From Savitreella phatthalungensis (taxonomy: Eukaryota): a stretch of DNA of 64,000 nucleotides. Of this stretch, positions 21,132 through 55,571 are shown in pieces. The stretch lies in assembly GCA_051599415.1 (NCBI GenBank), contig AP039696.1, positions 496,001 through 560,000 of the forward strand, read 5' to 3'. Numbering within the stretch: position 1 is the first letter of the stretch; each line of letters starts with the position of its first letter. The notes under the pieces are model-generated. The model searched no databases, was not told the origin of the DNA, and was given only the letters and a program-made list of their open reading frames with translations. A program made the translations under genes and the position numbers.

Positions 21132-22319
21132 TCATGCCTGTTGTAGTTTTTGTTGGGCTGCGACATCAGCCCGCAAGCGGTCTAATTCGCCTAGAGCGGA
21201 GTCGATAGCATCGAGCTCGCTCTCCCACGCGGCCAGGATGGGAACGCGCGCAGCTGAGCGGGAGTGTATCAGATCATCGTCGGCGCTCGTCCACGTGTTG
21301 ACAAGGGCGTCTAAATCTGGCACTGCCACCAAATCCACCTCACGAAGTAGTGGAGTCTCGAAAGCTCGACGTTCAAGATTCTGACGAACGGTGTTTCTAG
21401 CATCCTCTCCAATCTCGCGTATCGTGTCTATTTGGCCGTGGATCTGTTCGGCGCGACACTGACTTTGCAACAATGCGTGCTCTGCAATAATTTGTGCCAG
21501 GTCTGAACAACTGGTTGGCTCGCTGACAGCCAGCACGTGACGCCGGAGTTCACCGGATGCTCCGCTATCGTCAAGCTTCGGCAAGAAGACCTCTTTCGGT
21601 GATGTCAGGACGACATTATCAGCTGGGGTGTCAGTCGTGACGGCAAGTGACTCGAGTCGATGCATCTGATCTGCAACTTCGGCGGCCAGTTGTTCGAGTG
21701 TATGAATTGGGTCAGCCTTTGTGGATGTGGCACACCCATCAGTCAGTTGCAACATTTCGTCGACTGATTGCAACAAGTGGGACCTGGCTGCCTCGGGACT
21801 GATCGGCTGTGTGCTTCTAGCTGCGCGTGTTAAGCTGACGACTTCTTCTTTTAGTCTGTCGAGAGAGAGATTTTGGCCGGTTAGGAGCGGAGCGTTGACC
21901 TCTGACTGGGATAGAAGAAGCAGGTCCGTTCGAGCTCGGCGATCGATGATCGGCAGAATCGAGTCTACTGTGACGCGATCGAGGTTGGCAGTGCCTGTAT
22001 TGGCGAGATCGAAGGTGACTGCATCTAACGCTTGGTCAAGATCTTCTTCAGCAGGTGATGTCTCGTGCATGCGTGCAAGAACTTCAACATGTTGATTGTA
22101 AGTTGTGAGCTGTTCTGCAAGGCCCGAGTTGACTTTGCGAGTCAATTCGAGCGCCAGATTGCACTTGCGCAAGTCATGGATCAACTCTGCCCTATGCTGA
22201 GCGAGTGCTGCTGTGCGTGATGAGGTTTGATCTTTGTGTTCTGGCAGATCGATTTTGACCTGGCACTTGAGCTGCTCGATCGCCCGCCTGTGCTCTTCGT
22301 GTGTCTCGAGTGGCTTCAT
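21132..22319 (-). CDS. Hypothetical helical/coiled-coil protein
   Basis: Long open frame (first in-frame ATG at 22319, ~395 aa), L/E/A/Q-rich and heptad-like; no family recognised; start uncertain. Confidence 0.65.
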   Translation of the reverse strand: MKPLETHEEHRRAIEQLKCQVKIDLPEHKDQTSSRTAALAQHRAELIHDLRKCNLALELTRKVNSGLAEQLTTYNQHVEVLARMHETSPAEEDLDQALDAVTFDLANTGTANLDRVTVDSILPIIDRRARTDLLLLSQSEVNAPLLTGQNLSLDRLKEEVVSLTRAARSTQPISPEAARSHLLQSVDEMLQLTDGCATSTKADPIHTLEQLAAEVADQMHRLESLAVTTDTPADNVVLTSPKEVFLPKLDDSGASGELRRHVLAVSEPTSCSDLAQIIAEHALLQSQCRAEQIHGQIDTIREIGEDARNTVRQNLERRAFETPLLREVDLVAVPDLDALVNTWTSADDDLIHSRSAARVPILAAWESELDAIDSALGELDRLRADVAAQQKLQQA

Positions 22320-28817: not shown

Positions 28818-29546
28818 TCAGGGTATGGCTATTGCGAAGCCTTGTGCATTGAGCGCGTCTCCTATGACCAGGAACGTACAGGAGTAATCGACATCGAGGC
28901 GCATCGGCTGTAATGCGACGAGGTGGCGAATCTGTCCCGGCTGCATTTCGATGGAATTTGTGACCTGTGTTGCTGCAGACGAGTTATCGAGCAAGGCGTG
29001 CCCGCGATGATCGCTATCGATTGATGACGTGTCAGCATGGACAAGTACAACAGCGCTATCCTCCCCAAAAGCCACTCCGACAGAGCCGCAGGTCCGCAAG
29101 GCGCGTACGCAAATCCGCTGGCCGCGTGGACGGGAGACATACACCGGATGTGTTAGCAGCAGAGATCGGTCGACCTTGATCTCTAAAGATGACTCTGCCT
29201 GCAGGCTCTGTAGCAGAGCCTTCCAAGCCGAATGTAGCTCTTCGGGCACGTATGCGAGACTTTCTGTGTCAGCCGCACGACGATGCCGTCGTTTCGACCG
29301 CTCCAAGCTACGAGATCTCCGTGTCTTCTCATCGGCCTCATTTTCGATCTCCTCCAGTGTAGGCCTCTCGCCGTCTGAACGCGAGCGTCGATGAAATCTC
29401 GATGCCACGGACGGTGCGGTGGCGCTCGAAGACTTTGACACTGTTGTTGTCAATCCCCGGAGATGGAGCTTGAATAGCTTGTGGATAGGCGGTAGTGACC
29501 TGGATCGCATACTCGGCGGGCTAAGTATTGTAATACCAGATGACAT
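28818..29546 (-). CDS. Hypothetical protein
   Basis: 242-aa ATG-initiated ORF; basic, S/R-rich disordered N-half and beta-strand-like C-half; no family recognised. Confidence 0.5.
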   Translation of the reverse strand: MSSGITILSPPSMRSRSLPPIHKLFKLHLRGLTTTVSKSSSATAPSVASRFHRRSRSDGERPTLEEIENEADEKTRRSRSLERSKRRHRRAADTESLAYVPEELHSAWKALLQSLQAESSLEIKVDRSLLLTHPVYVSRPRGQRICVRALRTCGSVGVAFGEDSAVVLVHADTSSIDSDHRGHALLDNSSAATQVTNSIEMQPGQIRHLVALQPMRLDVDYSCTFLVIGDALNAQGFAIAIP

Positions 29547-36007: not shown

Positions 36008-36790
36008 CTAACGTCTTTTGCCATTCATATGAGCTGCACCAACGGAATTGTTTCCTCCACCTGCTGTGGCTGCTCTCTTTGCATGAACCGCGGCTGGGAC
36101 ACTTTTCCGCTCTTTCGCCACTGCGCTAGATCGTGTGCGCCGGTCGAGCTGATGCCATGAAGCCTTCCAGCTATGACATAATTCGAGCGCAGCCCGTATA
36201 GCTGCTAATCGAGTTTCCTCGTCTCCATCGTTCGAGCTTTGGAGCTGAGCGATGATGTTTGAGCCTGTGGAGGAAGCCTCTGAAATGACACTGGCCGAGT
36301 CGTCAACGTCGACGACGTTCTCGCCGTCATCCTCATGCGGCGTGCTCGGCGTCACCAGTTCCTCGGCGGCCTGCGAAGGTGAGCGAGATGGAACAGATGA
36401 CAGCTCAGAGAGCTCGCTCGAGAGCGATCCAGCCCCTCGCCGAAGCTGTCTGGTGTCTCGAGCGACCATGTGTGATATTGCCGAGCTCGTCTGAGATTCT
36501 CTTCGCCGCGACGAGCGACGCGGATCTTTGGAAGAGGTTCGCTGGCGCTTGCGAGCGCGTGATTCGCTCACATCTTGATCGTCTTCATGCTTCTTAAAAT
36601 GCGCCATCGCTTCTGCTTCATCTTCCTTTGCGGCATCCTGCGATTCCTGAGAGTCAAGGGAGCTGTGATATGAGAGTGTCTCATTCGAGACCGGTGGAGG
36701 CGGTGTACCAGCAATATCGACCGAAATCAGGCCGCGCTCCGAGCGACGCTGCCTCGAGCTGACTTGCGAGTTGACCATAGGTATAGGCAC
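36008..36790 (-). CDS. Hypothetical low-complexity (S/R/E-rich) protein, possibly nuclear
   Basis: 260-codon open frame with NLS-like 'RARKRQR'; start and exon structure uncertain. Confidence 0.5.
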   Translation of the reverse strand: MPIPMVNSQVSSRQRRSERGLISVDIAGTPPPPVSNETLSYHSSLDSQESQDAAKEDEAEAMAHFKKHEDDQDVSESRARKRQRTSSKDPRRSSRRRESQTSSAISHMVARDTRQLRRGAGSLSSELSELSSVPSRSPSQAAEELVTPSTPHEDDGENVVDVDDSASVISEASSTGSNIIAQLQSSNDGDEETRLAAIRAALELCHSWKASWHQLDRRTRSSAVAKERKSVPAAVHAKRAATAGGGNNSVGAAHMNGKRR

Positions 36791-39234: not shown

Positions 39235-41097
39235 ATGGCACCTCGCTGCATTGTTGTTGGTGGTGGACTTTCCGGTCTCAGCGCTGCGCACACCATTGTT
39301 GAGAACGGCGGTAACGTGCTTGTTCTCGACAAGAACGGCTTCTTCGGAGGTAACTCGACCAAGGCTACATCCGGCATCAACGGTGCTCTTACCCGCACTC
39401 AGGCTGGTCGCGACGTCAAGGATTCTGCCAAGCTCTTCTACGATGATACAGTTAAGTCTGCGCGTGACCTCGCTCGTCCTGACCTCATCAAGGTTCTTAC
39501 CTACCAATCAGCATCTGGTGTTGAATGGCTCCAGGACAGATTTGGACTCGCACTCGACCAGGTCGCTCGCCTGGGTGGTCACTCCGAACAGCGTACTCAC
39601 CGCTCCAACACCGAGAAGTTCCCTGGTATGGAGATCACGTACGCTTTGATGGAGAAGATGGAGGATTTGGCAAAGACCGACTCTTCACGTGTGAAGATCA
39701 TCAAGAAAGCACGTGTGACTGAGCTGCTGAAAGAGGGCGACAAGGTCGTCGGTGTGACGTACGAGGTCAAGGGCAAACCCTACAAGGAGTACGGTCCTGT
39801 CGTGCTTGCCACTGGAGGTTACGCCGCAGACTTTGGCGCAGACTCTCTACTGAAGAAGTGGCGTCCGGACACGTTCGACCTCTCGACCACCAACGGCCCG
39901 CACTGCACCGGTGACGGCCACAAGATGGTCAATGCCATCGGTGGACGCACAATCGACATGGAGAAGGTCCAAGTCCACCCGACTGGTCTGGTCGATGTGT
40001 CTGACCCGAAGGCAAAGGTCAAGTTCCTTGCCGCAGAGGCCTTGCGAGGCTCTGGAGGTATCTTGCTTGACGCCAATGGCGATCGTTTCTGCGACGAGCT
40101 CGGCCACCGCGACTACGTGACTGGAATGATGTGGAAGAACAAATTCCCCATTCGGCTGATTCTCAACGGCAAGTCGACCAAGGCCATTGAGTGGCATTGC
40201 AAGCACTACGTCAGCCGTCGCTTGATGAAGCGTTTCAACTCTGGCGCAGAGGTTGCAAAGGAGATTGGCTGCACACCAGAGCACCTCGCAGAGACTTTCA
40301 AGAAGTACAGCGAGATCGCTGACGGCAAGCAGAAGGACCCGTGGAACAAGCGATTCTTCCACAACGCACCTTACACGATGGACGACGACACCTGGCACGT
40401 TGCCCTAATGGAGCCCGTGCTTCACTACACCATGGGTGGTGTTGAGATCAACGATCAGTCGCAGGTCATCAATGAGCAGGGCAAGCCAATTGAGGGTCTT
40501 TTCGCCTGCGGTGAGCTCGCCGGTGGTGTCCACGGCGCTAACCGTCTCGGTGGATCATCCCTGCTCGGCTGTGTCGTCTTTGGTCGTGTTGCAGGCGACA
40601 GCGCTTCGTCTTACCTGCTTCAGACTCTGTCGACAGGCACTGCCGCCGCGCGTCTTGGCCAGGTTTCGCAGCACATCAATCTGTCGATTGACCCTAACAG
40701 CAAGAACATCACCATCTCGTTTGGCGGCGAGGGTGTTCAGGCGGTCGCATCGTCCGGTGCTTCCGCCGGCCCCGCAGTTGAGGCTGCTTCGAGCGAGCCC
40801 CACCCGGATGACACAGACTCACCCGCGCCTGGCGCACCGAAGGAGCTTAAGCAGTACTCGCTTGCTGACGTCGCAAAGCACAACAAGGACGGCGACATGT
40901 GGGTCGCCGTCGGCGGCAAGGTGATTGACGTCTGGGACTTCCTCGAGGACCACCCAGGAGGTCCTGCAGCGATCAAGATCTATGCCGGCCGTGCTTGCAC
41001 AGAGGCCTTCTTGCAGCTTCATGACGCAGACACGATCGAGAAGCACTACCCTCAGGGCATCATCGGCACTTACAGCGAGCCCGAGCCGAAGCACTAG
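39235..41097 (+). CDS. Soluble FAD-dependent fumarate reductase (Osm1/Frd1 family) fused to a C-terminal cytochrome b5 domain
   Basis: 'VVGGGLSGLSAA', 'GGNSTKATSGIN', 'LGGHS..RTH', 'VQVHPTG', 'AEALRG', 'HYTMGG', 'GGVHGANRLGGSSL'; C-terminal 'VAKHN...W...FLEDHPGG...F..LH'. Confidence 0.94.
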   Translation: MAPRCIVVGGGLSGLSAAHTIVENGGNVLVLDKNGFFGGNSTKATSGINGALTRTQAGRDVKDSAKLFYDDTVKSARDLARPDLIKVLTYQSASGVEWLQDRFGLALDQVARLGGHSEQRTHRSNTEKFPGMEITYALMEKMEDLAKTDSSRVKIIKKARVTELLKEGDKVVGVTYEVKGKPYKEYGPVVLATGGYAADFGADSLLKKWRPDTFDLSTTNGPHCTGDGHKMVNAIGGRTIDMEKVQVHPTGLVDVSDPKAKVKFLAAEALRGSGGILLDANGDRFCDELGHRDYVTGMMWKNKFPIRLILNGKSTKAIEWHCKHYVSRRLMKRFNSGAEVAKEIGCTPEHLAETFKKYSEIADGKQKDPWNKRFFHNAPYTMDDDTWHVALMEPVLHYTMGGVEINDQSQVINEQGKPIEGLFACGELAGGVHGANRLGGSSLLGCVVFGRVAGDSASSYLLQTLSTGTAAARLGQVSQHINLSIDPNSKNITISFGGEGVQAVASSGASAGPAVEAASSEPHPDDTDSPAPGAPKELKQYSLADVAKHNKDGDMWVAVGGKVIDVWDFLEDHPGGPAAIKIYAGRACTEAFLQLHDADTIEKHYPQGIIGTYSEPEPKH

Positions 41098-48296: not shown

Positions 48297-49475
48297 TCAA
48301 GTAGCAATGCCGTAGTTGCGGTCCACAACTCCACGAGCAAATTGTGCGAAAGTTGGCGCTGCTTCTGACTCTGTTGTCGAAGCAGGTCCGAGAACATCGT
48401 CGAGGTTTGGCTGCATAAAGACTGCCAGTGTGTTACGCGAAACCTTTGTGGCGTCGACGTTTGACTGTACTCCCTGTTGTAATTCGCCATTTAATGTAGC
48501 TGTCGGCAATCGATTGCCCACGACGAAGTGCGGCACAGCCCGAAGCTTCCCGCGAGTTGTGATCTGCAGTGCCTCGCCAGTCTGAAAAGCGAGACAGTCG
48601 CGAGGAATACCGACCTTTGAAATCCGATCACTGCGATCGCGAATATACAGTCCTGAGCGAGCGTCAGGTGGACCAGCAAGCTCTTCAAGCGATGCATTCA
48701 GCTGACCTGCGACTACAGCGGAGTCATCCACGTACATCGCGGATGTCAGTGCTGTCAAGCAGCCGTGATCGAGATGCTCACCGCACCACGAGTCTAAGGC
48801 TTCTGCCTCTCCTGCGGTCGAATCATTGCCCTGGGGTCGTGTGGGGAAGTAATGCAGCAGCCTTGCCTTACAGGTGCTCGAACGACGCACCATGTCTTCC
48901 AGATAGCTCTTATCATAGCCTCCGCCCACAAAGACGCTGCGCACGTAGTGATCACAAGCCCGAGCAACAAGGACGCCAACCTCTACCATGAATCGACCTA
49001 GCCGTTCACAGTCTGCACGCATGTCCCGCAACTCATCAAGACGTGCCGTTTCATCAGCTGTGAGGTTGTCCGGCCAGACGTTGGCGGTCTGATACTCTGG
49101 AAAACCCTCCGGTTTCTTGTGAGCGCCTTCCGGATGAGTCGGATTGAAGTAAAATGAGCCTTTGAGCAGATCAGGCTTGCCTCGAAACGTTTCCTGGCCA
49201 CAGGACCATCCGACGAGGTACTTGGACTCCTGACGCTCGAGCTCGTGCAGCAAGTGGTCAGGCAGCGCACCAAGCCTGGAAGCATGAGCCAGTACACGCT
49301 TTCGCATGCTCGAGAACTCTGAAGGCAGGTCTTTGACAACGAGGATGCCAAGGACATCGGGGCCGTCTCCAAAAGCCCGCTCTAATTCAGGATAGAGCGC
49401 CTCAAGTCTGTCAGCCGACTGAAGGTCTGCTAACGATATCGTGACTGGCTGTGCTCTGGGATATTCGACACTCAT
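48297..49475 (-). CDS. 2-oxoglutarate/Fe(II)-dependent dioxygenase (IPNS-like superfamily)
   Basis: DIOX_N-like start 'PVTISLADL..LERAFG...LGILVV', 'RLLHYFP', HxD 'GEHLDHGCLT', distal His 'AVPHFV', 'SRNTLAVFMQP'. Confidence 0.87.
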   Translation of the reverse strand: MSVEYPRAQPVTISLADLQSADRLEALYPELERAFGDGPDVLGILVVKDLPSEFSSMRKRVLAHASRLGALPDHLLHELERQESKYLVGWSCGQETFRGKPDLLKGSFYFNPTHPEGAHKKPEGFPEYQTANVWPDNLTADETARLDELRDMRADCERLGRFMVEVGVLVARACDHYVRSVFVGGGYDKSYLEDMVRRSSTCKARLLHYFPTRPQGNDSTAGEAEALDSWCGEHLDHGCLTALTSAMYVDDSAVVAGQLNASLEELAGPPDARSGLYIRDRSDRISKVGIPRDCLAFQTGEALQITTRGKLRAVPHFVVGNRLPTATLNGELQQGVQSNVDATKVSRNTLAVFMQPNLDDVLGPASTTESEAAPTFAQFARGVVDRNYGIAT

Positions 49476-50452: not shown

Positions 50453-53400
50453 TTACTTTGCTGCAGATCCACGGCCTCCGAGACGAGCAAAGCGTTCTTT
50501 TGTCTCCTGGTCAAGGCTCATTTGCGGAAGTACAAGCTTTGCCTTCCGTCGAGGCGCATCCAAGAAATTTACAGCGACCAGGAACGACAGTGCTTTGCTC
50601 ATCTCCTCGGCTAAGAAGCCCGCGCCTGCCGTTTTGTCCTGCCCTGTCCATTCAGCTGCTGCATCGATTCTGAGCGCCTCGACCGCGTTTCTATCATCAA
50701 GCTCGGGAGCTTTGGTGGAAGATGGTAAGTCCTCAGTTACGAAATGCAGCAAAGGTAAGAGGGCATTTTCACCTGTGCGTGAGACTTCCCGCTCTAATGC
50801 AACCTTCCACGGAACGTAATCACTCCGCTGCACATCGAAGCCAAAATCAGCTAGAAGTCCGAGGAAGTCGACAAAGCGCGATCGTGGATGTCCTGTGACC
50901 TGAGCAACGGATAGAAGGGCTTCCGATGGCGGGTGCAGGGCACAGGCGACAGTCACACGTGCCACATGATCTACTGGCACCATGTTGACGTTGTTGTGGA
51001 TGTCTGGGAAGCTGCCAATCTGTGTACAGCCTTTGATCAGGCGGATGATGAAGTCATCAGTGTTGACGACACCCGACCGTGAGTCCGAGACGATGTAACC
51101 GGGACGGACAACAGTTCCGCGCAGTCCGCGGCGGCCTGCCTCTCGTGCAATGAATTCGCCCGCCCACTTGCTCTGTCCATAGCCGGTACCGAGTCCAGTG
51201 CGCGAACCGGCGAGGTCATCAGACTCTGAGACTCCAGACTCTCCAGCGTTGACGAGCCGATCAGATTCACGCACGAAATGCTCCGTGTCGAGTACCGAAG
51301 TTGAAGAAACGAAGGTGAAGACCTTCGCTTTCCCCTCCGCACACAATTGGAGGGTGGACATCGTGCCTAGCACATTCGCAGGACGCAGTTGAGCGTATGG
51401 GAAGACCCAGTGAACAAGCGCGCCGTTGTGGATGACAATGTCGACCTCAGAAGCAAGCCTCGTCCAGTCGGCGGGCGTCAAACCGAGTCTATCCGCTGAC
51501 AGATCTCCGCAGACGATATCGATTCGTGACTCCCAGTCTTCTTTCCACACGCCGTAATTCGTCAGATTATCACGAATCCTGATCATCCCCGCCGAAGATT
51601 CTTTTGCCCGGACATGGACCACGAGTCTCGCTGTCTGGCGACGTTCAAGCAGGTCGCGCATGAGGAATGCCCCCAAGAATCCCGTAGCGCCAGTCAGGAA
51701 GATAGTAAGTCTATCCTGTGCGGAAAAGGGCTCGCGGGTCTCGAAAGACTTCGCTAAAACAGATCTGCAGAGCTCCTCGGCATCGTCTGCATAGGCGGGC
51801 TCGCACGAGACGATCGGCTGGGCGGCGGTGTCTGCAGTCTCTCCCTGTCGCAGTTTATCAATCTCGTCTGACAGCTGACCAAGTGTAGGCGTCGCGAAGA
51901 TAAGGCCCAAAGGAATATTGTCGAGGACGAAAGCAGCACGGAGTTTAAAAATAAGCTTCGTAGCGAGAATGGAGTGACCACCCAGATCGAAGAAGTTGTC
52001 ACTCAGCGAAAGGTCAGCCGGTGCCGCGGGCAACACATCTCGCCAGACCTCGACCATCTTACGTTGTGTACCATTTAGTTGAGATGCACTACCCCGACGA
52101 CCCCGAGATACAGCCGCCAGCTGAGCCGTGTCGGGATATGGCAACCTGGGCTTGTCGATTTTGCCGTTGGGGTTCAAAGGCATCTTGTCCATAGGCACAT
52201 AAACCGATGGCACAGCGTATGTTGCTAATTTGGTTTTGAGATATGCGCGAATATCGTCAACGAGCGGTCGATAGCGCTGCATGCGTTGCACAAGAAGGTC
52301 TGCATATTGGTTTGCGAGGACATCAGCGGTCGCTTGTACAATCGCCTCGTGCTCTGCGGAGTGTATGCGCTGTTCGAGCGCTTCAATCGCTTCACCCTGG
52401 TGAATTTCCACCTTGCGTACAAGCACGGGCTCGCCCATGTCCACCTCGGCGGTCACCCAGTGAATCATAATTCCGGTGCACTCGATCAACCCTTGTTGGA
52501 AAGCTTCAAATGCGCGTTCGATCGCTTTCGCTCCGTTGAATTGACCCGGAAGCGCCGGATGCAAGTTTATAATGCCGACCGAGGCAGCTTCGAGCGGCTC
52601 GAGGAATTGCGTGGACAGGATGTGCATGAATCCAGCGCACACGACCAGATCAGGCTTGCCATCCTCGAGTACAAGTTTTGCGAGCTCAATGTCGTATCTC
52701 TCCCTAGAGTCACCAAATTGCTTGCGCGACTTCGCCAATGACCAGACTTTCGTGCGGATGCCTGCCTGCTCTGCACGCTGCAGTCCAAAAGCGTCCTTGC
52801 GATTGGAAATCACTGTAGTGATTTCAGCCTTACCCGCTAGAATTCCAGACTTGGTCGCATCGATCAGCGCCTGAAGATTTGACCCGCTGCCACTGATCAG
52901 AACGGTAAGCCTTTTCAGTGGCGTCGCTCGCAAGAGATTTTCGAGTTCAGGCTTCTGATCTGGAACAAAGTACGACACGAGCGTAGGCTCCTCGTCTTTG
53001 TTGCGGCGCAGCAGTGTCACATTTTCGCGGACCAGAGGATGGCGCGAAAGATGAGTATCGATCTCGCCTAGCTCAATTCGGAAGCCACGGATCTTGACCT
53101 GGTCGTCGGCACGACCGCTGCACTCCACGTTGCCGTCCGGTAGGTATCGGCCGAGATCACCGCTTCGGTAGAGCCTGTCACGCGCGCCTCGCCATGCTCC
53201 TGCACCGTCGTAGATGAGCGATGACCAGGTTGAGTCATTCACGAACCAGGATTGCACAAACTTCTGAGCAGTCATTTCGGGCAAGCTTAAATATCCCTCA
53301 GCCAGTCCGCCAGCTCGGACGAAGATTTCGCCTATCTCGCCGACTCCACATACTCTGCGCGAACCATCCCGTGAAACGACGAGCAGTTGTACGTCCTTCA

Positions 53401-55114
53401 TCCCTTGACCGGCGGGCATGATGTCCTTGCACGATGCCAGGAAATTAGGGTCTCTAGCCACGGCCGGTATGCGATAGAATGAAACTGAGCGCTGAGTTTC
53501 CGTCGTGCCATACATATTGATGATGTCGACGTTTCGTCCAAGACTTTGTAAGCGATTGACGTCTCGTTTTGTCAGGACATCACCAACGAAGAAGGCATTG
53601 CGGAGACTGTCGATTTGTACATCACCGGCAACTTGGGACGACAGTAATTGGCCCATAGCAGGTGTGAGATGTGTCACTGTAACTTTCTTCTTAGCGCACC
53701 ATTCTGCCAAACGACCAGGTGTTCCGATGTCTTCTGCCGTCGGCACAACAAGGGTAGCACCAAGGAAGAGCGGAGTGAAGATATCGCGTTGAATAGGATC
53801 GTGAGCGATGCCAGAGAGCATGGTGAAGCGATCGGCAGCGGAAAGTCCGAAGTGTTCGGCCATCCATGGAAAGTAGTAAGTGAGGGAAAAGTGCCGTCCG
53901 CGCACCCCTTTCGGTACGCCCTCGCTGCCGGATGTGAACGAGAGTGTGGGAATGTCATCAGGCCCGATGTCAACGGCGGATCTATCAGATGAGATCTGTT
54001 CTGGCAGACCGCGGAGCCGTGTACCGTCATCTTCAATACGCAAGGCAGGCAGTTTCACCGTGAGTGGATCCAAATTGCTCGCGATCCAGTCTGTGACATG
54101 CTCATCGAGCGTCCCAGCACGCTCAAGCACGATCAAACCGCGCGGCCTGGCGACAGATAAGTAGATACACTGTCGCTCTGGCGGATATGCAGGATCAATC
54201 ACTGAAAATGTCGCTCCGGCTTTGAGAATGCCCATAACGGCGATGACGAGATCGACGCCTCTAAAGGCATAGATTACCACGACATCGCCCTTGACAATAC
54301 CCTGCTGTATCAAATGGTTGGCGAGCTCATTTGAACGTTTGTGAATGTGGTCATATGAGAAGGTGAGCTCTCCGCCGGAGGCTGTCGAGACGACGACGCA
54401 TGGCCGTTCAGGTTGCGCTATTGCATTTTCTGCGAAAATTGTTGAGATTGGTCCGACGAAACTGTTCCAGTGTAGATCGCGCGTAGGATCGGGCAAGATT
54501 GAGCGCTGTGTCTCCTCGATGAGGTTGATGGCTCCAACGCTGACCGCAGTGCTCCGACCGAATGAGACGATGCTGATCAGCTGTTTCGCGATGATGCGTA
54601 TCCGTTGCGATGAGAACAGCAGGGAGTTATAAGAGATTGCGAGACTGTCACGAAAGTGGAACAGTGTCAAGTCGACGTCGAGATCGGACGAACCAAGTAG
54701 ACCTTCCGCGGTTTCGGTGCCTCCTAGATAACGGAGATGATAGAGTGGAGCAGTATCTGAGCCGGAGCCGAGCAGCTTGAGCACATCGTCGATTGGAATC
54801 CATGCAGCCACGCTGGCGCTGCATGCTTCCGTCACGCTCTCTACGGCATCTGCAAAAGTGCCGGCAAGATTCAAGTCCTTGACACGCAGTACAAATGGCC
54901 GCCCACGATCATCCTTCGTTCCAACGCTGATGTCAGTGTCGCCTGTCAACTTGCTCGCCAGGATGATGAAGGCGGTCAGGAGATCATTTGAGGAAACTCC
55001 AGAATGTGGCTCTTGCAGCACTGACTCCACATTCCTTGGTGGTGACGGTCTGACGAAGTCTGCCGGTAGGTGTGATATCGTCTGATCGGCGAGCGTCTCC
55101 TTCCAGAAGGACAT
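50453..55114 (-). CDS. LYS2: L-alpha-aminoadipate reductase (A-T-R) carrying an in-frame inserted phosphoribosylglycinamide formyltransferase domain
   Basis: Lys2 motifs 'LPDPTRDLHW', 'TLSFTSGSEGVPKGVRGRHFSL', 'MLSGIAHDPIQRDIFTPLFLGA', 'NMYGTTETQR', 'YRSGDLGRY', 'GRADDQVKIRGFRIELGEID', 'NPNGKIDK'; PCP 'FFDLGGHSIL'; reductase 'LTGATGFLG' and 'YGQSKW'. First in-frame ATG at 55114. Confidence 0.96.
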   Translation of the reverse strand: MSFWKETLADQTISHLPADFVRPSPPRNVESVLQEPHSGVSSNDLLTAFIILASKLTGDTDISVGTKDDRGRPFVLRVKDLNLAGTFADAVESVTEACSASVAAWIPIDDVLKLLGSGSDTAPLYHLRYLGGTETAEGLLGSSDLDVDLTLFHFRDSLAISYNSLLFSSQRIRIIAKQLISIVSFGRSTAVSVGAINLIEETQRSILPDPTRDLHWNSFVGPISTIFAENAIAQPERPCVVVSTASGGELTFSYDHIHKRSNELANHLIQQGIVKGDVVVIYAFRGVDLVIAVMGILKAGATFSVIDPAYPPERQCIYLSVARPRGLIVLERAGTLDEHVTDWIASNLDPLTVKLPALRIEDDGTRLRGLPEQISSDRSAVDIGPDDIPTLSFTSGSEGVPKGVRGRHFSLTYYFPWMAEHFGLSAADRFTMLSGIAHDPIQRDIFTPLFLGATLVVPTAEDIGTPGRLAEWCAKKKVTVTHLTPAMGQLLSSQVAGDVQIDSLRNAFFVGDVLTKRDVNRLQSLGRNVDIINMYGTTETQRSVSFYRIPAVARDPNFLASCKDIMPAGQGMKDVQLLVVSRDGSRRVCGVGEIGEIFVRAGGLAEGYLSLPEMTAQKFVQSWFVNDSTWSSLIYDGAGAWRGARDRLYRSGDLGRYLPDGNVECSGRADDQVKIRGFRIELGEIDTHLSRHPLVRENVTLLRRNKDEEPTLVSYFVPDQKPELENLLRATPLKRLTVLISGSGSNLQALIDATKSGILAGKAEITTVISNRKDAFGLQRAEQAGIRTKVWSLAKSRKQFGDSRERYDIELAKLVLEDGKPDLVVCAGFMHILSTQFLEPLEAASVGIINLHPALPGQFNGAKAIERAFEAFQQGLIECTGIMIHWVTAEVDMGEPVLVRKVEIHQGEAIEALEQRIHSAEHEAIVQATADVLANQYADLLVQRMQRYRPLVDDIRAYLKTKLATYAVPSVYVPMDKMPLNPNGKIDKPRLPYPDTAQLAAVSRGRRGSASQLNGTQRKMVEVWRDVLPAAPADLSLSDNFFDLGGHSILATKLIFKLRAAFVLDNIPLGLIFATPTLGQLSDEIDKLRQGETADTAAQPIVSCEPAYADDAEELCRSVLAKSFETREPFSAQDRLTIFLTGATGFLGAFLMRDLLERRQTARLVVHVRAKESSAGMIRIRDNLTNYGVWKEDWESRIDIVCGDLSADRLGLTPADWTRLASEVDIVIHNGALVHWVFPYAQLRPANVLGTMSTLQLCAEGKAKVFTFVSSTSVLDTEHFVRESDRLVNAGESGVSESDDLAGSRTGLGTGYGQSKWAGEFIAREAGRRGLRGTVVRPGYIVSDSRSGVVNTDDFIIRLIKGCTQIGSFPDIHNNVNMVPVDHVARVTVACALHPPSEALLSVAQVTGHPRSRFVDFLGLLADFGFDVQRSDYVPWKVALEREVSRTGENALLPLLHFVTEDLPSSTKAPELDDRNAVEALRIDAAAEWTGQDKTAGAGFLAEEMSKALSFLVAVNFLDAPRRKAKLVLPQMSLDQETKERFARLGGRGSAAK
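52312..52918 (-). other. GAR transformylase (PurN/Ade8) domain nested within Lys2
   Basis: 'KRLTVLISGSGSNLQALIDA', 'VISNRKDAFGLQRAEQAGI', 'RERYD..LA', 'PDLVVCAGFMHILS', 'IINLHPALPGQFNG..AIERA', 'TGIMIHWVTAEVDMGEP', 'LEQRIHSAEH'. Boundaries approximate. Confidence 0.93.
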
Positions 55115-55571
55115 GCCTGGCGTTAAGGATCTTTTCCCAAGACCCTTCAACTCTAAGACAACAGGATCAAGTGTGAGCAACTTTTTTGTGAGTGTTTAAC
55201 GCATATATGCACATGCATATATCGATGAAGTGGTACTTGTCGATCAATCATGATGCACGGGACTGTACTGCCTGAGAAGCCAACGGCCTGAGCATAGCTA
55301 TCATGATCGAATGCATATGCAGTTGGTCATTAAAAAGTATATCAAATAATGCATAGATAAATTTGATTTCAATTTTTATATCTGTGTCAACCGCAAACGG
55401 CCTCGTGCAAACCACAGCTGCAGATGAACTGCTGACTATGCATATTGACAGTTCGTAGCGGGCGTTATGAATTGTACCGCAATGTGAGGATGCACGCAAC
55501 ATACTATATACTAATTTATATAGCATGAAAAGGTGGGAGGACGCACTTCGACGGCCGTAGTGTGATAGCCA

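Follow-up and report, generated by a model that had tools for sequence, protein, structure and literature searches.

The 64,000-nucleotide stretch of Savitreella phatthalungensis DNA analyzed here, which we call the window (GenBank assembly GCA_051599415.1, contig AP039696.1, positions 496,001 to 560,000), carries on its minus strand a gene for Lys2, the α-aminoadipate reductase of fungal lysine synthesis, whose adenylation domain contains a complete Ade8-type glycinamide ribonucleotide (GAR) transformylase (GART), the enzyme of the third step of purine synthesis. A preliminary description of the stretch, made from its letters alone, had claimed a single uninterrupted Lys2 frame holding a PurN-type insert, and the translation reads as claimed. 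The frame is open and unbroken over 50453..55180 (minus strand), with an ATG at 55114, and the protein model that accompanies the window (P0002) has 1553 residues, equal to the length of the frame from that ATG. The order along the frame is motif A8, EEPTLVSYFVPDQKPELENLLRATPL, about 200 residues of PurN-type sequence, ANQYADLLVQRMQRYRPLVDDIRAYLKTKLATYAVP, the NPNGKIDK motif, the carrier (PCP) domain and the reductase (Table 1). Residues 740 and 967 (P0001 numbering, used throughout) bracket the insert, with A8 at residues 689 to 708 and A9/A10 at residues 985 to 1010, so that the insert is nested between A8 and A9. Positions 14 to 76 of the Pfam AMP-binding_C profile, its C-terminal two thirds, match residues 945 to 1007. 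The preliminary description had placed the insert at 52312..52918, which agrees within one codon with the domain limits found here, and the ISGSGSN, NLHP and Asp motifs that it had named are all present in the insert. Base composition is uniform over both junctions, and the GC content at third codon positions is 0.61 in the insert and 0.57 in the remaining gene.

Table 1. Layout of the Lys2 gene with nested Ade8 domain (window positions)
Feature	Position	Strand	Residues	Description
Lys2 with nested Ade8, whole gene	50453..55114	minus		1553 residues from ATG, stop-free, without obvious intron
N-terminal Lys2 region	54494..55114	minus	23-229	Aligned with other Lys2 proteins (alignment A1); least conserved part
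Adenylation core	53288..54436	minus	249-631	Pfam AMP-binding, E = 2.2e-57
Small C-terminal adenylation subdomain, part 1	52961..53116	minus	689-740	Motif A8 (689-708) and hairpin to LVSYFVP (740)
N-side linker	52916..52960	minus	741-755	DQKPELENLLRATPL; native Lys2 loop remnant, variable
Nested GAR transformylase (Ade8/PurN) domain	52310..52915	minus	756-957	
Phosphate loop of nested GART		minus	762-768	ISGSGSN
Asn872 and His874 of nested GART	52559..52567	minus	872-874	In NLHP (872-875)
Asp914 of nested GART	52439..52441	minus	914	In EVDMG (912-916)
C-side linker	52283..52309	minus	958-966	Variable
Small adenylation subdomain, part 2	52121..52282	minus		A9 (LATYAVP) and A10 (NPNGKIDK)
Carrier (PCP) domain	51863..52060	minus	1041-1106	Pfam PP-binding; phosphopantetheine serine S1070 in GGHS
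Thioester reductase domain	50561..51706	minus	1159-1540	TIGR01746, 340.5 bits; NAD_binding_4 at 1162-1409

A complete GAR transformylase inside a conserved Lys2

A profile search of the protein, which the preliminary description had expected to reveal a complete Formyl_trans_N domain nested in the C-terminal part of the adenylation region, did so: PF00551 matches residues 756 to 951 over profile positions 1 to 181 of 181 with an E value of 3.8e-43. The PurN equivalog TIGR00639 matches residues 756 to 957 over model positions 1 to 187 of 192, with 189.1 bits against a cut-off of 150.1. Stand-alone fungal Ade8 proteins are 53-63% identical to the insert (best 120 of 7620 matches), and the Ade8 of Schizosaccharomyces pombe is 56% identical. 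On a profile built from these 120 stand-alone proteins, the nested inserts of the window and its relatives (described below) score 293-313 bits over nearly the full profile length, and Ade8 domains from Aspergillus score 303-326 bits.

The residues that characterize the family are retained. An alignment column was counted as Ade8-conserved when the 120 stand-alone proteins agree in it to at least 95%, which gave 58 columns. Of the 464 cells that these columns hold in the eight nested inserts, 458 are kept, and the six exceptions (G/S, I/L, I/V or V/I) are conservative. G764, G766, N768, N872, H874 and D914 all fall in Ade8-conserved columns and are kept, except for a G-to-S change at position 764 in one fragment. 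The phosphate-loop and catalytic residues of the insert, whose roles we take to be those of their counterparts in the E. coli and human enzymes, align with those of human GART. The PDB yields 18 sequence matches at E ≤ 1e-10, every one a GAR transformylase, with human GART (1.6e-29) and E. coli PurN (1e-28) scoring best.

A structure model of the insert, one of the checks suggested in the preliminary description, recovered the fold. The predicted model of residues 690 to 1030 has a mean predicted local distance difference test score (pLDDT) of 83.5 and a predicted template modeling score (pTM) of 0.77, with most of the GART part above a pLDDT of 90. Superposition on solved GAR transformylases gave target-normalized template modeling (TM) scores of 0.73-0.93 and root mean square deviations of 1.8-3.0 Å. 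The fold matches down to rank 29 (24 rows listed) are all GAR transformylases, with PurU, ArnA and the sugar formyltransferases ranking below them. Thus, the insert is predicted to adopt the GAR transformylase fold. It does not have the features of a formylation (F) domain of a nonribosomal peptide synthetase (NRPS), as it is internal and the PDB search returned no Fmt or LgrA chain at E ≤ 1e-10. The five nested proteins aligned in A1 have no methionine ahead of the GART domain and, because of this, the domain would be producible only as part of the Lys2 chain.

The host protein is equally recognizable. Its match to the Lys2 equivalog TIGR03443, which the insert divides into two stretches, reaches 1851.2 bits (cut-off 1030.1). 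The domains follow the adenylation-PCP-reductase order of Lys2, and both the carrier serine and the NAD(P)H-binding motif are in place. The carrier motif GGHS (G1067, G1068, H1069 and S1070) and the nucleotide motif of the reductase, TGATGFLG (T1163 to G1170), are invariant in alignment A1. For comparison, we used 44 canonical Lys2 proteins, drawn from P0063-P0121 and at least 1300 residues long (P0081 and 14 shorter proteins were left out). This set is at least 95% identical at 424 columns, where the nested proteins keep 1575 of 1696 cells. The loop between Y737 and L973 measures 32-41 residues in the 44 canonical proteins, in line with the short loop that the preliminary description had ascribed to canonical Lys2 at this site, versus 235-238 residues in four nested proteins, a difference far beyond chance. 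A Protein Atlas search returned only AMP-binding_C clusters with a score of 0.84, too low to serve as a lead.

Pairwise comparison of the five nested proteins shows how constraint is distributed along the chain. The GART insert is 72-80% identical, the adenylation core (residues 230 to 690) 76-84% and the two halves of the small subdomain 78-100% (part 1, 90-100%; part 2, 78-91%), followed by the PCP domain at 60-76%, the reductase at 61-75% and the N-terminal region at 43-53%. The two linkers are only 17-67% identical (N-side, 17-62%; C-side, residues 952 to 966, 20-67%). By these identities, the insert appears conserved to the same degree as the adenylation core. Such a pattern of conserved domains joined by variable linkers is that of independently folding, functional domains.

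Recurrence and origin of the nested domain

The architecture recurs in related fungi. Residues 700 to 1020 were searched against 5.8 billion proteins, and among the best 120 of 2559 matches are seven further sequences, 72-77% identical, that combine PF00551 with Lys2 domains. P0003, P0005, P0007 and P0008 are full length or nearly so, and P0004, P0006 and P0009 are fragments. P0007 is CCG84356.1 of Taphrina deformans PYCC 5710, which carries the names "protein of unknown function" at NCBI and "Phosphoribosylglycinamide formyltransferase" in UniRef. The nested sequences come from independent sources (NCBI, JGI, Logan and ENA). In all five aligned nested proteins, the window's included, the insertion site is identical (A1), after EEPTLVSYFVPD and before AD.LV.RMQRY. 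Thus, the search of relatives for the same architecture, likewise suggested in the preliminary description, yielded seven further carriers with the same site.

The Lys2 proteins of Saitoella, Neolecta and Schizosaccharomyces lack the insert. When the adenylation part alone (residues 230 to 740) is ranked over the 120 matches listed, the 79-80% group consists of the nested forms and one Protomyces model, P0044, discussed below; the next match is a 1377-residue protein of Saitoella coloradoensis at 67% without PF00551. The Lys2 proteins of Neolecta irregularis and of the three Schizosaccharomyces entries listed also lack PF00551, and the adenylation-part identity to Saitoella, Neolecta and Schizosaccharomyces Lys2 is 62-67%. 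No second Taphrina Lys2 is found among the 120 matches listed in either protein search (residues 700 to 1020 or 230 to 740). An exhaustive HMMER search with residues 700 to 1020 over 1.84 billion representatives of 50%-identity clusters found one that spans the nested stretch (P0009, 484.6 bits); the second match (207 bits) among the 150 listed is a stand-alone Ade8. A metagenome scan with the insert found 72 loci of at most 60% identity, none of the 72 with adjoining Lys2 sequence (83 high-scoring segment pairs, all inside the insert). The architecture therefore appears, from the sequences searched, to be confined to the Taphrina-Protomyces lineage of leaf-curl-type fungi, in which the window is placed as well.

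We next consider where the insert came from. A maximum-likelihood tree, the third check suggested in the preliminary description, was computed from 54 rows and 219 columns, comprising the eight nested inserts, an Ade8-type domain from Sorochytrium milnesiophthora (described below), 23 named and 6 unnamed of the 120 stand-alone matches, 6 domains from long fungal proteins and, as outgroup, 10 bacterial-type sequences out of the 72 metagenome loci. All eight nested inserts fall into a single clade (support 98/93), sister to the Schizosaccharomyces Ade8 proteins (84/81) and within the Ascomycota clade (96/95). The branches of the nested clade are not lengthened (stem 0.14, tips 0.18-0.39). This position is the place in the species tree expected for the lineage's own ADE8, and thus the tree indicates that the insert derives by vertical descent from the lineage's own fungal Ade8. 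A bacterial origin was rejected, as the insert nests among fungal Ade8 proteins and away from the 10 bacterial-type outgroup sequences.

In a second, 185-row tree computed with FastTree, the nested clade again holds the eight nested rows alone (support 77), with the stand-alone protein P0338 as its sister. P0338 is 230 residues long, carries ITGKGSN as an altered phosphate loop and shares 51-53% identity with the inserts. The inserts are far closer to each other than to P0338, which thus probably stems from outside the clade. Among the best 120 of 7620 stand-alone Ade8 matches are five Schizosaccharomyces species and no name from Taphrina or Protomyces, which weakly suggests that the free gene may have been lost.

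Ade8 is also joined to other proteins. The preliminary statement that fungal Ade8 is normally a stand-alone protein is mostly true but needs qualification, because many long fungal proteins carry an Ade8 domain (P0011-P0062, either real fusions or merged gene models). They include RING-finger proteins with a C-terminal Ade8 in Aspergillus, proteins of Agaricomycetes with an N-terminal Ade8 and a protein kinase, and proteins of 720-1850 residues with an internal Ade8 in Ustilaginomycotina and Malassezia. Ade8 thus seems prone either to fusion or to the merging of gene models. One such protein involves Lys2 itself. The Lys2 model KAL7747753.1 of S. milnesiophthora (Blastocladiomycota; P0010) has a complete N-terminal Ade8-type GART (residues 1 to 209; Pfam match 7 to 195) that replaces the first ~30 Lys2 residues and keeps 57 of the 58 Ade8-conserved columns. 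In the tree this domain falls outside the Ascomycota, separate from the nested inserts. The model represents either a second, independent pairing of Ade8 with Lys2 or two neighboring genes merged by annotation.

The genes around the Lys2-Ade8 gene in the window are ordinary housekeeping genes, encoding a CPSF/DDB1-type protein, an actin-capping subunit, a DEAD helicase, an RNA polymerase subunit, NAT10 and others; a biosynthetic cluster is absent from this neighborhood. This setting fits a gene of primary metabolism. Also in this neighborhood, an open reading frame (ORF) at 39235-41097 (plus strand) joins a fumarate-reductase-type FAD_binding_2 domain to a C-terminal cytochrome b5 domain. Four ORFs of 242-395 residues, all on the minus strand (48297-49475, 21132-22319, 28818-29546 and 36008-36778), match no Pfam family at E ≤ 1e-5, and one of them lies immediately downstream of the Lys2-Ade8 gene.

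Functional readings of the Lys2-Ade8 protein

The preliminary description had offered two readings of the locus, a bifunctional lysine/purine enzyme made by domain insertion and an NRPS-like enzyme that formylates a PCP-tethered substrate. The first is favored by the equivalog cut-offs passed by both parts, by the conserved cells retained in each (458/464 and 1575/1696) and by the recurrence of the architecture. We consider it probable that the gene encodes one bifunctional housekeeping protein in which Lys2 and Ade8 activities are independent, the free ADE8 having been lost. In such a scheme, the ancestor of Taphrina and Protomyces would have acquired its own ADE8 coding sequence in frame within the variable A8-A9 surface loop of Lys2. 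The GART domain would fold autonomously, held by two short variable linkers, and would be carried along when the small subdomain moves from the adenylation to the thiolation state and back. Its substrates would be GAR and 10-formyl-tetrahydrofolate, handled apart from the Lys2 reaction cycle, and loss of the free-standing ADE8 would then have locked the merger in. We infer that both activities are present and independent and that no separate ADE8 is left; the merger of these two housekeeping enzymes was most likely harmless or neutral.

Several observations weigh against this reading. The fold predicted for residues 230 to 1110 is poor, with a pTM of 0.51 and a pLDDT below 50 over fragment residues 327 to 476, so that the domain placement is unusable. 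Foldseek with this 881-residue model returned only generic NRPS adenylation domains at TM-scores of about 0.3, and the pyochelin synthetase entries 7EN1 (rank 12) and 7EN2 (rank 26) are listed with low TM-scores, as is 5WMM (rank 15). The second pairing of Ade8 with Lys2, in Sorochytrium, sits poorly with a purely accidental merger. The presumed absence of a stand-alone Ade8 from the lineage is drawn from the best 120 of 7620 matches, of which about half carry names. Finally, one public gene model, P0044, omits the insert, and, were that model based on RNA, it would mean that the insert is spliced out in that species at least.

This last observation is the sole basis for a reading in which the insert is removed as an in-frame intron (an "exitron") from all or some transcripts, so that mature Lys2 is canonical and GART, if expressed in any form, comes from unspliced RNA alone. 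P0044 (Protomyces lactucae-debilis ORY80373.1, 1322 residues) lacks precisely 210 residues, 731 to 940 of P0005, between flanks that are 85% and 83% identical to those of P0005. The gap is a multiple of three, and the window could offer a GT start (ttt|gtt) and an AG end (gag|gcg). However, the would-be donor in the window, gttcca, is far from the fungal consensus, which we take to be GTRNGT. The gap in P0044 also takes out native loop residues, VPDxxPEL, that are present in canonical Lys2 (A1), and the model retains the final PurN helix, AIIEATAKVLSA. This combination of loop loss and helix retention points to a homology-guided model rather than a clean excision, and the gap is probably a false intron introduced by annotation. 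Moreover, the insert is retained both in the window's own model and in the T. deformans model, and the frame is open and conserved over both junctions in all five aligned nested proteins. The insert has no start codon of its own and yet is under strong constraint, which argues that it is translated through the junctions. We therefore regard removal of the insert from the transcript as unlikely.

Similarly improbable is that the nested domain is a relic or pseudo-enzyme, with a separate ADE8 performing the purine step and the insert persisting as a passenger or in a minor new role. The position of the stand-alone P0338 as sister of the nested clade in the FastTree analysis would fit such a history, but P0338 is much further from the inserts than these are from each other, and none of the 120 stand-alone matches listed is named Taphrina or Protomyces. 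A relic would also be hard to reconcile with the retention of nearly all family-conserved cells (those of the phosphate loop and of Asn, His and Asp among them), with an identity between species that matches that of the adenylation core, or with branches that are not lengthened.

Less probable still is that GART is coupled to Lys2, for example by N-formylating the carrier-bound α-aminoadipate so that the semialdehyde cannot cyclize, a form of the second reading in the preliminary description. Nested tailoring domains occupy the A8-A9 loop, as far as these are covered in PMC8949500, and the Sorochytrium model places its Ade8 domain N-terminally, where NRPS F domains sit. If both joinings are independent they may, though this seems quite unlikely to us, reflect a functional link, either formyl protection of the aminoadipate on the carrier or of its semialdehyde, or a direct coupling of lysine synthesis with folate and purine status. 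The PurN-equivalog score, the retained GAR-transformylase-conserved columns and the unaccelerated evolution of the insert all speak against formylation of a PCP-tethered substrate. In addition, the nearest solved relatives are GAR transformylases only, with Fmt-like and sugar formyltransferases lower by fold, whereas NRPS F domains resemble Met-tRNA formyltransferase. We further presume that a deformylase would be needed for a formylated intermediate, which the later enzymes of lysine synthesis are not known to accept. Should formyl protection nevertheless be true, this would be the first formylating interrupted adenylation domain, and one in primary metabolism; any coupling of the activities would amount to a new kind of tailoring chemistry.

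An assembly or annotation chimera, in which the PurN sequence is not truly inside LYS2 and for which the general possibility alone speaks, appears excluded for practical purposes by the uniform composition over the junctions and by the same junctions in eight sequences from independent sources, the window's own model counted, that are 72-100% identical over residues 700 to 1020.

Comparison with interrupted adenylation domains and enzyme mergers

If the protein is bifunctional as we favor, it offers a natural case of a complete housekeeping enzyme placed within the catalytic domain of an enzyme from an unrelated pathway and retained over a fungal lineage. It would indicate that the A8-A9 loop of an adenylation domain of primary metabolism tolerates a guest of 200 residues, which may be useful for engineering adenylation domains and carboxylic acid reductases. 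The insertion also provides a clean shared-derived character of the Taphrina-Protomyces group and a test case for how neutral gene mergers turn irreversible, and it accounts for the probable annotation error in Protomyces and for database names that call Lys2 a "GAR formyltransferase". The nested sequences were already public under such automatic names. The authors of the preliminary description knew of no account of this architecture, and our full-text literature searches (subscription journals and supplements lying outside them) bear this out, as neither a Lys2-Ade8 protein nor an adenylation domain with a nested formyltransferase turned up in them.

The location of the insert has clear precedents. 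In the parts of PMC8949500 and PMC10510592 that treat interrupted adenylation domains, nested domains usually sit in the A8-A9 loop, the guests being compatible with the swing of the subdomain. The guests known there are methyltransferases, oxidases/monooxygenases, reductases and an epimerase, which tailor the substrate of their own module; the F domains of NRPSs stand at the N-terminus and are akin to Met-tRNA formyltransferase (PMC8949500, PMC10510592). The preliminary description had stated as much of the A8-A9 site and of the position of F domains, in agreement with these parts of both sources. Interrupted NRPS adenylation domains, such as TioS A-M-A (5WMM) and PchE/PchF, likewise hold a whole foreign domain between A8 and A9. 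In the Lys2-Ade8 protein, however, host and guest are both enzymes of primary metabolism, the guest belonging to an unrelated pathway, and the guest most likely leaves the tethered substrate untouched. The F domain of LgrA, as far as the sources describe it, is also a formyltransferase fold of the 10-formyl-tetrahydrofolate type on an adenylation-PCP unit, but it is N-terminal in an initiation module, whereas the domain described here is PurN-type and nested in the adenylation domain.

The protein shares its domain order and motifs with canonical fungal Lys2 (TIGR03443), except that the loop here holds a whole enzyme. It shares fold and family residues with stand-alone Ade8/PurN, except that the domain is internal, has no start codon of its own and is joined to a non-purine partner. 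In the animal trifunctional protein, GART is already one domain of a larger protein, as the PDB molecule names indicate. Other lineage-specific mergers across pathways have become fixed in fungi, among them the fusion of spermidine synthase and saccharopine reductase in basidiomycetes (PMC10051792) and the Aco2 fusion of aconitase with a ribosomal protein in fission yeast (bioRxiv 10.1101/2019.12.16.879015). Both are reportedly joined end-to-end, unlike the insertion described here. In kind, the Lys2-Ade8 protein is an interrupted adenylation domain or, equally, a lineage-specific enzyme merger; the arrangement would surprise a specialist but is most likely ordinary in mechanism.

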